DNA from: an archaeon | Lineage (GTDB): Archaea; Aenigmatarchaeota; Aenigmatarchaeia; GW2011-AR5 | Reading direction: 5' to 3' | DNA length: 26,479 nucleotides | NCBI GenBank assembly: GCA_035289025.1 | Contig: DATDYJ010000045.1 | Span: 1 to 26,479, forward strand | In this document: piece by piece, positions 3,001 through 6,000 of the stretch | Layout of the letters: every line of letters starts with the position of its first letter | Numbering within the stretch: position 1 is the stretch's first letter | Position numbers: made by a program

Positions 3001-6000
3001 AAGAAAGATTTACAAGAAAGAAACACGACACAAGCTTTCCGATAAATGCAATAAATTACTGCATGAAAGAGGCCGGAATCACATCAGACCGGATATCGTA
3101 CGTGGGATTTTACGAAAAACCCATGCTGAAATTTGAACGTCTCCTTAACCAGCACTTCAACGCGTTCCCGAAATCTTTTCCGGTTTTCCTGCGCTCCATG
3201 CCGTCGTGGCTCACAGAGAAGCTCAAAGTCCCGTCAACCGTCAGGAAAAAACTGAAATACGACGGCGAGGTTTTATTTGTACAGCACCACGTGTCGCACG
3301 CGGCATCGGCATTTCTTGCTTCGCCGTTCAGAAAGGCGGCAATACTTACTGTTGATGGCGTAGGCGAATGGGCAACGACAACCATGGGTGTTGGCGAGGA
3401 AAACAGGATAAAGTTGCTGAAGGAGATCCATTTCCCTCACTCTATCGGGCTCTTGTACAGCACCGTTACGGCATACCTTGGTTTCAAGGTGAATAACGAT
3501 GAGTACAAGGTAATGGGTCTTGCCGCGTACGGCGAGCCAATTTATTATGATAAATTCAAGAAACTTCTGGAAATCAAGGAAGACGGAAGCTACAAACTTG
3601 ACATGTCTTACTTTGTTTATCACTACAAAGAGGCCATGCCGTCCAAGAAATTCGTAGAGGAATTCGGCCCTGCCAGAAAGCCCGAATCGAAGATGGAAAA
3701 GCGGTATGAAGACATTGCTGCGTCCGTCCAGAAAATAACGGAGGAAGCCGTAATAAAAATGCTTAATCATCTGCACGATGTAACAAAATGCGACAACGTC
3801 TGCCTGGCAGGAGGCGTGGCCCTCAACAGCGTTGCAAACGGAAAGATTCTCTGCAATTCACCTTTCAAGTCGGTGTACATCCAGCCCGCTGCCAGCGACG
3901 CAGGAAGCGCCGCAGGCGTGGCTCTTTACATATACAACTCTATTCTCGGCAAAGAACGCAGATACGTTATGGATCACGCATACTTAGGACCGTCTTTCAG
4001 CAACGAGGAAATACGCGGTTACCTGGAGAACAACGGCATAAGTTTTACGGAATTCGCAGGCGACAAAGACCTTGTCAAAAAAACAGCTGAGCTGATACAC
4101 AACAACAAAGTCGTCGGCTGGTTCCAGGGGCGTATGGAATGGGGCCCGCGGGCACTTGGCTCAAGAAGCATACTGTCGAACCCATGCAACCCGCAGATGA
4201 AAGGCATACTTAATTCCAAGGTCAAGCACCGTGAAATGTTCCGTCCGTTTGCCCCGGCCGTTGCCGAAGAAAATGCAAAGGAGTATTTCGAAACGGACGA
4301 CCCGGTGCCTGTTCCGGCTGATTTCATGTTAATGGTGTACCCTATAAACAAGGAAAAAAGACACATGATACCGGCCGTGGTGCACGAAGACGGCACTGGA
4401 CGCCTGCAAACAGTCAGAAAATGGCAGAATCCCCTTTACCACAGCGCAATAAAAGAGTTTGAAAAGCTGAGCGGCGTGCCGATAATAATAAACACGTCAT
4501 TCAATATACGCGGCGAGCCCATCGTCTGCACTCCGCAGGAAGCGTACCGCTGCATGATGGGCACAGGTATAGATTATCTGGTAATGGGCAACTACCTGAT
4601 AGCACGCGAAGACAACCCAAAAGACATGTGGAACAGCGAAAAGCTCGCCAGAGATTAGGCTTTTAATTTTAAGTGTTAAGTGATTGTATTCCGTAAAAGT
4701 ACGATAATCGGCGTGAAGATCATTATCTGTTGATAATGATCTTAGCTGACCTGTTCGTCAACTGATGAACAGGTCTACGCCGATTATCGCTCGTTAAAGG
4801 AATACAATGATATTAAGTGATCACATGAATCTCTACCTAGCCAATAAGTACAAAGTTTTTGTCGGAAAAGGGGAACACGTTGGTCTCTGTACCTTATGGG
4901 ACGACCCTGAAATAATTCTCAAAGCTGAGCCGCAGATTCTTGATCACGTTGCCATACTGGGCTCGCTTTACAGCAGAGAAGGCGTCAATATAATGCTGCG
5001 CAATTTATGCCTCAACCCGCAGATATCCCATGTGCTTGTATGGGGAAAGGGAAACCTTTCAAAGACTCCGATAGGTATCGTAGGCAGAGAAACTCTGGAA
5101 AGGCTGTGGAGTGGTGAGCTGAACGGCGGTACAATTGAAAGTACTGGATTCCGCATGCACCCGACAATAAGCAGTGACATAGTAGGGCTTGTGACAAGTA
5201 ATGTTGAGTTAGTTGATGTAAGCGCACTTGCCCTGTCTGAAATTATTGAGAAGATCAAAACCCTTGAACGTAAAGAGCCTTACATGGAGCCTGTTATGTT
5301 TGAGGAATTCCGCCGTGGCGGGGATTTCACGTTCCCTTCTGAAGAAGTCGGCTTCGTCGTGCATGGGAAAAAAGTCACTGACGTCTGGATAAAGGTCGTG
5401 GACAAAATCATGAGGTACGGAACAATTAAGCCCACAGAGTACGGAAACAACCAAAGAGAACTGCAGTCTGTGACATGGGTCGTTGAGGCAGAGAACACGG
5501 ACAACAGGCACATACCTGAATGGCCGAGCGAGATAAAGAAAACTGTCGGGCTTGAAAAAAACTCCCTCGACAAATATATTTCTACTATATTCTTCGACCC
5601 GTCTCCGCCCGACGGCACTGCATACACATACGGTAACAGGCTGCTGGCCTACGACCAGATATACAACCAGACGAAATTCATGATAGATAAAATAAAGGAG
5701 TGCGAGTCGACGCGACGCGCCGTTTCTGTGCTTTATCACCCGCCGACGGACCACAAAACCAAATCTCCGCCATGCCTTACGCATATTCAGATACTTGTGA
5801 GCGGTGACAAACTCAATATGTTTGTCGTTTATCGCAGCCATGATATATTCAAAGCCGGTATATCCAATGCTTTCGGTCTGCGCGCGCTGCAGGAACACAT
5901 AGCAAAAGAAACTTGCCATGTGGTTGGCAAGCTTGCCATCACCAGCAACTCGGCCCACATCTATGAGGAAGACTGGGAGAACGCGAAGAAACTATGCATG

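Follow-up and report, generated by a model that had tools for sequence, protein, structure and literature searches.

The intergenic DNA between a carbamoyltransferase gene and a ThyA-like gene in an aenigmatarchaeal genome holds a nested palindrome (positions 4683-4808) that is very probably an old, fixed copy of a non-autonomous DNA transposon (MITE). The window, the whole stretch of DNA that we analyzed, spans 26,479 nt of one contig. A range of observations supports this reading: the element is repeated, its copies carry inverted-repeat ends and target-site duplications, empty sites exist, the fold recurs throughout an archaeal family, and a sister type of the element has an IS5-family partner. 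We class the element as a new MITE family. An earlier note, made from the sequence alone, had proposed a thyA-linked regulatory leader and had listed a small mobile element last among its alternatives; the evidence reverses that order. The same note had held that many dispersed copies unrelated to thyA would favor a MITE, and 13 further copies were found beside unrelated genes.

The fold and its insertion site

The fold consists of P1, a 9-by-9 internal loop, P2, and two 12-bp hairpins. The sequence is exactly as the earlier note described it, and RNAfold (positions 4660-4830) returned the same four-helix, three-way-junction structure at a predicted -73.5 kcal/mol. In comparison, 200 dinucleotide shuffles had a mean of -32.6 (sd, 3.7; z = -10.9 for the native sequence), and 0/200 were as stable. 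Of the 148 intergenic bases, the element takes up 126; it begins 24 nt after the carbamoyltransferase stop and is devoid of ORFs except for a 2-nt overlap with ATG 4807. Its P1 helix, which pairs ATTGTATTCC with GGAATACAAT, does hold GGAA and the AT of that ATG. The parts of the element, for which no strand is assigned, are as follows.

4683-4692: 5' arm of P1 and left terminal inverted repeat; 13 other copies have this terminus, and G 4682 may be part of the repeat
4693-4701: internal-loop side 'a', GTAAAAGTA, a conserved, non-palindromic marker of the shell (from an alignment of 20 element ends and the orientation table)
4702-4714: 5' arm of P2 (13 bp)
4715-4743: hairpin H1 (P3 of the earlier note), 12 bp with a 4-nt loop; its sequence varies from copy to copy, with compensatory changes
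4744-4747: junction linker AGCT, conserved across genera
4748-4775: hairpin H2 (P4 of the earlier note), 12 bp with one G-U pair; its sequence is conserved in its own genome, in G014, and in one metagenome population
4777-4789: 3' arm of P2
4790-4798: internal-loop side 'b', CTCGTTAAA (from the end alignment and the orientation table)
4799-4808: 3' arm of P1 and right terminal inverted repeat; ATG 4807 consists of its final two bases and G 4809

That the fold matches no recognized RNA family was borne out as well. In E-value mode, Rfam returned for the window copy two snoRNA-like matches far below threshold (14.9 and 10.1 bits versus gathering scores of 37 and 41), and 11 other loci gave zero matches at the gathering score. 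A C/D-box sRNA, suggested by a CTGATGA in P4 and by these weak snoRNA matches, was ruled out by scores so far below threshold.

The surroundings of the element are laid out as follows.

2907-4658, + strand: carbamoyltransferase gene (Pfam PF02543, PF16861), upstream of the element
4661-4672, + strand: A/T-rich TATA-like box upstream of the insertion, a putative promoter element; the homologous loci L020 and L019 have such boxes about as far from the leader motif
4674-4682, no strand: left copy of the target-site duplication, GTGTTAAGT (repeated at 4810-4818), with the exact heptamer TTAAGTG at 4676-4682 (repeated at 4813-4819)
4810-4818, no strand: right copy of the target-site duplication, ATATTAAGT, partly decayed, matching the left copy at 7/9 positions; its aligned counterpart in L020 is the uninterrupted GTTAAGTGAT
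4817-4827, + strand: Shine-Dalgarno-like GTGATC and ATG 4825, where the ThyA-like gene probably started originally
4825-6318, + strand: ThyA-like gene (PF00303 and PF14251/DUF4346), which gene callers start at 4807

Homologous leaders from the closest ThyA-like homologues read ...GTTAAGTGATTTC-ATG (L020) and ...GAGTGATTTTCT-ATG (L019), and conservation of the ThyA-like protein starts at NLYL, right after Met-7; judged from these sequences, the true start is probably ATG 4825 rather than ATG 4807. Comparison of the leaders places the insertion inside their conserved motif, GTTAAGTGAT, with ATG 4825 following 16 nt downstream.

A thyA-specific cis-regulatory leader, be it a nucleotide or folate riboswitch or a thymidylate synthase autoregulation site, is what a very stable, RNA-capable structure directly before a thymidylate-synthase-like gene would bring to mind, all the more when its P1 overlaps ATG 4807. 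We nevertheless consider this explanation very improbable. The 13 other copies adjoin unrelated genes, the regions upstream of the two closest ThyA-like loci lack the element, and both the probable start codon and its GTGATC motif lie beyond the fold. The stems are nearly wholly Watson-Crick, leaving no conserved unpaired pocket besides short junction motifs, and a match in Rfam is absent. Unlike riboswitches and thymidylate synthase sites, moreover, the element is unlinked to the thymidylate-synthase-like gene family, and it is repetitive and shows the typical marks of transposition.

Dispersed copies, target duplications, and empty sites

The genome that holds the window (730 kb assembled, 65% complete) has at least 14 full copies of 125 to 260 nt on 12 contigs, together with fragments. 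All 14 are intergenic and lie beside unrelated genes, among them those for a DegT aminotransferase, a Toprim protein, PheRS-alpha, and a class II aminoacyl-tRNA synthetase. Every copy ends in the terminal inverted repeats G-ATTGTATTCC and GGAATACAAT-C, or variants of them (GATTG...CAATC), with direct repeats of ~9 bp outside; an exact direct repeat of at least 7 nt within the 14-nt flanks was present in 10/13 copies, compared with 0.6% by chance. The longer copies have gained their size through mini-hairpins added inside loops. Clustering of contig ends, in which we sought a collapsed insertion sequence, revealed only pairwise 141-nt assembly overlaps.

Strain-variant contigs supplied empty-site alleles for two copies. 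Contig C21 has a single, uninterrupted GCATTACGTG where C41 has an element between two copies of the target, and in C56 GGAATAGAT occurs just once, at the place where C77 carries an element between two AATAGAT repeats. At the thyA locus, the element is present in three assemblies and four read or contig sets with zero joints that skip it, so that no empty allele was found among them, and same-genus genomes offered no usable orthologous empty site, being too diverged or not syntenic. As the duplication of the window copy is decayed and its empty allele was not found, we infer its mobility from its relatives.

An integron attC-like site, or some other target of site-specific recombination downstream of gene cassettes, might also appear as an imperfect palindrome of ~126 nt, and several copies do lie just past stop codons; the copies are, however, single and dispersed between housekeeping genes rather than in cassette arrays. 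We find this reading scarcely credible, because target-site duplications, variable in sequence, flank the copies and empty sites accompany them. The ends of the window copy, in addition, do not match the attC R-box pattern.

Spread through the family and the search for a transposase

A BLAST search of the element against 40 relatives gave a single match (G014), which pointed to a highly restricted distribution. That impression was wrong: a covariance model later recovered the same T-shaped architecture in 23/44 genomes and 11/19 genera of the archaeal family. Copy density reaches ~40 per Mb, some genomes have near-identical copies by the dozen, many copies in G009 and G022 are identical, and the young copies of G022 have clean 9-bp duplications (occasionally 8 bp) directly outside GATTG...CAATC. 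The exact pattern of the H2 hairpin, sought in 371 genomes of the phylum, occurs in its own genome only; the sequence of H2 is lineage specific, and its structure is not. No related element was found in viral contigs with three patterns; three palindrome matches there proved to be GC-rich sequences of no relation to it, and the pattern of an end plus P2 lacked specificity.

All four helices are kept by compensatory change, with covariation across genera at 47/48 base pairs, which are 97% paired. A transposase needing only terminal repeats does not explain conservation of four helices; this conservation may point to a further constraint acting on the fold. An outer shell and an inner core behave as modules that occur in all four combinations, and in some copies the core runs opposite to the shell (subfamily A, 3 to 2; subfamily B, 6 to 2). 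Each of the young, near-identical subfamilies of G022 has a single isomer, flips being seen only between older subfamilies; inversion is thus an infrequent event that does not accompany every transposition.

Sister elements that end in GCTCTGT(A/T)GAAA have interiors homologous to those of window-type elements. This end and a 9-bp duplication recur, identically, in intact insertion sequences of 0.9 kb from the IS5 family (NF033579/PF01609 transposase), which same-genus genomes carry and which were found in G004, G006, and G009. The insertion sequence on contig C25 of G004 has 939 bp, perfect inverted repeats, the duplication GCTATTTTA, and a gene for a transposase of 308 aa; that on C50 of G006 has 907 bp and encodes 282 aa that score 148.6 bits with NF033579 (cut-off, 140). 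We take GGCTTTGTTGAA-type ends with a 9-bp duplication to resemble the IS903 group of the IS5 family. The window copy, unlike the sister type, ends in GATTGTATTCC, and no insertion sequence joining a GATTG-type end to a transposase was found in the window's own genome or in the rest of the family searched, including G022, which is 97% complete and has ~25 copies. A Pfam search of the assembled 65% of the window's genome found none of the PF01609, PF12762, or PF00872 transposases. Three candidate partners were ruled out: IS1595 copies in relatives, whose ends mismatch, and both a 410-aa PF01609 ORF of G014 and large IS4/IS5-like ORFs of other genomes, which lack matching ends.

In the mechanism that we propose, a transposase supplied in trans would bind the terminal inverted repeats and cut the target with a 9-bp stagger, the repair of which would leave the flanking direct repeat. 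The inserted DNA is a nested palindrome: its ends form P1, the asymmetric loop and then P2 lie inside them, and innermost are two 12-bp hairpins separated by AGCT, so that any transcript or single strand across it would fold into a T. One such insertion would have entered the short spacer between the carbamoyltransferase and ThyA-like genes. For the window's own end type we infer DDE cut-and-paste transposition, and we treat any effect on thyA expression in the same way.

Prokaryotic MITEs include QMITE2 of Coxiella, the Correia elements of Neisseria, enterobacterial ERIC/IRU, and archaeal elements of Sulfolobus and Halobacterium (PMC10969869), and a census of MITEs takes in DPANN genomes (PMC11602168). 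The present element resembles them in being small (~126 nt) and non-coding, in its terminal inverted repeats and 7- to 9-bp direct repeats, and in its many dispersed, lineage-restricted copies at A/T-rich intergenic sites, whose transcripts would have very stable stem-loops. It differs from them in forming a conserved three-way junction rather than one long hairpin, in joining shell and core in all four combinations, and in growing by mini-hairpins within loops. These traits, together with its rare flip/flop inversions, are the less ordinary ones for a MITE.

Possible roles of the T-shaped fold

An inserted fold could also work at the RNA level: it might stabilize transcript ends, be a site of processing, block transcription in the manner of a terminator, or carry an outward promoter. 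Such a role supplements the MITE explanation and does not replace it. Bacterial MITE transcripts are known to affect mRNA stability or to act as sRNAs (PMC10969869). Six of the seven copies that follow a gene lie at most 25 nt after its stop, and four copies lie 15 to 24 nt before a start; the genome is compact, however, so any intergenic insertion falls near gene ends. The co-transcribed strand is the more stable one in 8/8 copies of unambiguous direction, although three of the eight energy differences are below 2.5 kcal/mol. Helix-internal wobble pairs favor the sense strand by 16 to 7, a bias that is not significant (p = 0.09) and that transcription-coupled C-to-T mutation would yield identically. 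The copies are oriented at random with respect to flanking genes (shell, 4 same and 5 opposite; core, 5 and 4), and G-U pairs and A-C mismatches are equally rare (9 versus 8 of 384 cells), as a DNA palindrome predicts. We regard an RNA-level role as unlikely on this balance.

Alternatively, the folded DNA might itself drive transposition, through a cruciform or single-stranded T-shaped intermediate or by hairpin-primed copying of the parvoviral type. This would account for the covariation of every helix across genera and for the flip/flop isomers of the core, and the search for a conventional partner of the window's end type came up empty. In shape only, the element recalls the inverted terminal repeat of AAV, an outer palindrome around two small palindromes that forms a three-way junction with both inner orientations. 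Unlike that repeat, it has target duplications on both sides and is scattered over a cellular genome, and its young copies share one isomer, so that flipping is not a step of every replication cycle and flip and flop are not equal among sister copies. Inverted-repeat ends with a 9-bp duplication are, furthermore, an ordinary DDE signature, and the sister type has an ordinary IS5-family partner. We judge transposition driven by folded DNA to be decidedly improbable, and the MITE reading with DDE chemistry stands as our preferred one.

Recognition of this element as a MITE removes a tempting false positive, since a highly significant four-helix fold before a metabolic gene proves to be the scar of a transposon, and it is a warning for RNA-motif screens that rely solely on folding energy or covariation. 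The elements constitute a previously undescribed MITE superfamily that has spread in repeated bursts through ~1-Mb DPANN archaeal genomes, to ~40 copies per Mb in one of them, with a clear IS5-family partner for one end type and none for the other. The family is also a compact natural data set on the evolution of nested palindromes, in which compensatory change (47/48 pairs), rare inversions, module swapping, and hairpin accretion can be followed together. We think it doubtful, but worth stating, that the T-fold is a functional unit, either because a transposase of GATTG-type ends reads folded DNA, cruciform or single-stranded, or because the host uses the hairpins as RNA signals. If it were, selection, and not mere inheritance of a palindrome, would keep the four helices while shells, cores, and mini-hairpins recombine.

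Fold and dispersed copies of the element

The element at 4683-4808 of the window folds into four helices. As the earlier note had reported, the sequence reads as the following parts, and RNAfold assigns −73.5 kcal/mol to the four-helix fold of 4660-4830 (z = −10.9; shuffles, −32.6 ± 3.7), with 0 of 200 shuffles equally stable.

Fold of the element (window coordinates)
4683-4692 with 4799-4808: P1, 10 bp
4693-4701 and 4790-4798: internal loop, 9+9 nt
4702-4714 with 4777-4789: P2, 13 bp
4715-4743: hairpin P3, 12 bp
4744-4747: linker, AGCT
4748-4775: hairpin P4, 12 bp, one G-U

The same note had recognized no RNA family here and had called for an Rfam search, which returned no match for the window copy (top scores, 14.9 and 10.1 bits versus gathering cutoffs of 37 and 41). 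The window's own genome, G000 (730 kb, 113 contigs, 65% complete), derives from groundwater and soil metagenomes. The genomic copy count proposed earlier, made by BLAST, end-motif scans, and an HMM of the element ends, gave 14 full copies of 125 to 260 nt beside unrelated genes, as well as partial copies (e.g., C48:4566-4648).

Full copies in G000 (contig:positions)
C45:4683-4808 (window copy)
C62:440-566
C61:2594-2722
C61:2736-2912
C61:4510-4636
C47:9242-9368
C77:245-423
C44:2572-2696
C13:990-1115
C40:2135-2363
C56:843-1049
C41:7260-7412
C32:10004-10128
C101:2030-2289

All G000 copies are intergenic. Adjoining genes include those for a DegT-type aminotransferase, a Toprim protein, PheRS-alpha, and a class II aminoacyl-tRNA synthetase, and none beside the other copies is tied to thymidylate synthesis. 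These dispersed copies, unrelated to thyA, refute the interpretation that the earlier note had favored, a cis-regulatory leader of thyA.

Eight short copies align into a four-helix consensus in which 97.1% of cells are paired and both sides have changed in 34 of 48 pairs; 0 of 500 shuffles attain the consensus pairing and covariation, and slid controls pair at only 27 to 48%. When the archaeal family was searched with a covariance model built from this alignment, the architecture turned up in 23 of 44 genomes (11 of 19 genera), with 71 matches in G022, 30 in G009, and 16 to 19 in each of G006, G220, G218, and G008 (both strands counted). Plain BLAST overlooked nearly all of the relatives' copies because the helix sequences diverge while the design stays constant: the inverted-repeat end forms P1 and is followed by a loop, P2, a single unpaired base, a hairpin of 12 bp whose loop is 4 to 5 nt, the linker AGCT(AG), and another 12-bp hairpin. 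Across 35 loci drawn from ~20 genomes, pairing holds in 97.3% of cells, double changes occur in 47 of 48 pairs, and the covariation score is 0.889, versus 0.244 when shuffled.

Insertion with target duplication

Every G000 copy has inverted-repeat ends starting (G)ATTG, and 10 of 13 copies carry an exact 7- to 11-nt direct repeat within their 14-nt flanks, as do 0.6% of random positions. The ~20 nearly identical young copies in G022 have a 9-bp (at times 8-bp) duplication immediately outside GATTG...CAATC. Two strain-variant contig pairs within the G000 metagenome-assembled genome (MAG) supply empty sites: C21 holds an intact target with a single GCATTACGTG, where the C41 element is flanked by GCATTACGCG on either side, and C56 holds a single GGAATAGAT, where the C77 element is bracketed by two AATAGAT. 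Together, the ends, flanking repeats, young-copy geometry, and empty sites show that the family inserts with target duplication. The ends, flanking repeats, and empty sites also bear out an alternative that the earlier note had listed, a small mobile element; the window element is very probably a MITE, that is, a small noncoding transposable element whose transposase would be supplied by another element.

The paired G000 contigs (C21/C41, C56/C77, C35/C92, C46/C103, C68/C95, and C25/C47) are 85 to 99% identical across 200-1400 bp and represent either strain variants binned together or duplicates of recent origin. At many of their ends, G000 contigs share exactly 141 nt, the assembler k-mer, with one other contig.

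Shells, cores, and transposase partners

The copies combine shells with T1 ends (GATTG..., as in the window copy) or T2 ends [GCTCTGT(A/T)GAAA] with core A (H1, AGCT, and H2, GACCTGTTCATC) or core B (H3, AGCATGATTGC, plus an H1-like hairpin), H1 and H2 being hairpins P3 and P4 of the window copy. All four pairings exist.

Shell-core pairings
T1 + A: C45, C62, C47, C61a, C77
T1 + B: C44, C13, C32, C61b, C40, C56, C41, C101
T2 + A: G014 (a relative) and five Ga0187892 metagenome contigs
T2 + B: C61:2594-2722
A core, T2 ends not recognizable: sixth Ga0187892 contig, L212

In part of the copies the core is reversed relative to the non-palindromic shell loops: subfamily A has the order H1-H2 in three copies and H2-H1 in two, and subfamily B has H1-H3 in six and H3-H1 in two. 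Since all copies share one isomer inside each young G022 subfamily, flips separating subfamilies only, core inversion is a rare event and no part of each transposition; the simplest route would be for stem arms to recombine or for templates to switch between them.

In longer copies, hairpin loops or the internal loop contain additional mini-hairpins. One, CTGACGCAC-GAAG-GTGCGTC with its flanks, sits in hairpin loops of longer copies from two genera (G022 loci L286-L292; G000 copies on C56 and C41) and also at G000 C109:~444-472 and C1:11152-11182. Over 20/20 bases it is identical to part of a tRNA-Ser gene on C109, at the intron/variable-arm region; the match could be a coincidence, or the hairpin could derive from a tRNA or be a tiny mobile unit. 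At G000 C109:321-508, C109:2213-2389, and C1:10579-10782, the introns that ARAGORN predicts in tRNA genes are very long (85-92 nt and more). A two-hairpin module of long copies (…GGAGAATC-GAAG-ATTCTCC-TGTAC…) also lies within unrelated small palindromic repeats (TATAGTGAACC…, TATAGTTCCCAAGG…) at G000 C104:5026-5081, C34:2246-2279, and C48:3474-3513, and TATAGTGAACC-like palindromes occur in G014 (L039:1037-1325); module and palindromes may be a second layer of hairpin-invading repeats. A few bases from its empty site, C56 carries a different MITE (278-365, 88 nt) that its homologue C77 lacks; this one has two hairpins and T2-like ends (AGCTTTGTTGAAAAAG) but is missing P2. On metagenome contig Ga0187892_10024654, a T2-type element without its right end (L196:2605-2889) has an identical 38-nt sequence on either side, an organization suggestive of rearrangement or partial deletion.

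Partner insertion sequences with T2 ends are present in same-genus genomes. That on G004 C25 (939 bp) is bounded by perfect GCTCTGTTGAAATC ends, is flanked by a 9-bp duplication (GCTATTTTA), and contains a 308-amino-acid open reading frame (ORF). A 907-bp copy on G006 C50 has a 282-amino-acid ORF scoring 148.6 bits against NCBIfam NF033579, "IS5 family transposase" (cutoff, 140); among plasmid-borne genes, its closest relatives are of the IS5 family and come from haloarchaea and methanogens (~31% identity). Additional T2-end copies lie on G006 C8, G009 C21, and G009 C5. The T2 ends and 9-bp duplication may resemble those of the IS903 group. No insertion sequence with T1 ends was found in the genomes searched, G022 included; that genome (97% complete) has ~25 T1 end pairs, all 131 to 213 bp apart, and no PF01609, PF12762, or PF00872 match, and the 65% complete G000 likewise matches none of the three. 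In G014, an IS1595-family transposase gene at C5:32183-32723 (L039) is decayed, with stop codons at four points, and a lone IS5-type end (GGCTCTGTAGAAACCTTACCTAAAT) with no adjoining transposase lies at C8:26155 (L226:1501).

The ThyA-like locus and the nature of the element

The ThyA-like protein (window 4807-6318) carries a PF14251 domain (DUF4346, pterin-binding) at its C terminus and ~170 additional residues at its N terminus; its homologues in the same archaeal family are patchy (11 of 31 genomes; only 30-36% identity). The nearest ThyA-like proteins, at 52% identity, occur in Aenigmatarchaeota MAGs, and the organism is therefore a DPANN archaeon. At the two closest loci, L020 and L019, the leader is uninterrupted (...TATAATTGTTAAGTGATTTC-ATG and ...TATAATCGAGTGATTTTCT-ATG, respectively), and alignment of their proteins to that of the window runs from NLYL on, immediately after Met-7. 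In the window, GTGTTAAGT abuts the left side of the element and ATATTAAGT-GATCAC-ATG(4825) lies on its right. Because pieces of a motif intact in L020 and L019 flank it, the element must have inserted within the conserved leader motif. The target duplication here, now 7/9 identical, has decayed since insertion. The element is present at this locus in 3/3 ENA assemblies and 4/4 contig sets examined, with no joints skipping it in any of them; the insertion is old and fixed.

The ancestral start was probably ATG 4825, which has a GTGATC motif, and ATG 4807, picked by the gene caller in the ENA assemblies, consists of the element's final two bases plus a mutated flanking base. P1 does overlap ATG 4807, as the earlier note had observed, but its idea that P1 buries the start carries little weight, since both the Shine-Dalgarno-like motif and the likely start fall beyond the fold.

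It is possible that the inserted fold acts at the RNA level: the co-transcribed strand is the more stable in 8/8 copies with an unambiguous transcription direction, and helix-internal wobble pairs favor it 16 to 7. The wobble bias, however, is not significant (P = 0.09), and transcription-coupled deamination would produce the same bias; moreover, the eight-copy alignment has G-U pairs and A-C mismatches in similarly small numbers (9 and 8 cells, respectively), and orientation relative to neighboring genes is random (tally, 4 to 5 for the shell and 5 to 4 for the core).

A riboswitch is very unlikely given the lack of gene linkage and of a family match, and an attC site is excluded by the target duplications and the lack of arrays; nor does the element's behavior fit a hairpin-primed replicon. 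It is well established that MITEs can have direct repeats of 7-9 bp, target A/T-rich intergenic sites, and yield transcripts predicted to be very stable, and a large census has counted MITEs in DPANN genomes (PMC10969869, PMC11602168). The element has every structural hallmark of a MITE apart from an autonomous partner found for its T1 ends. Compared with known MITEs, its unusual traits are a conserved three-way junction, module shuffling, and an orphan end type.
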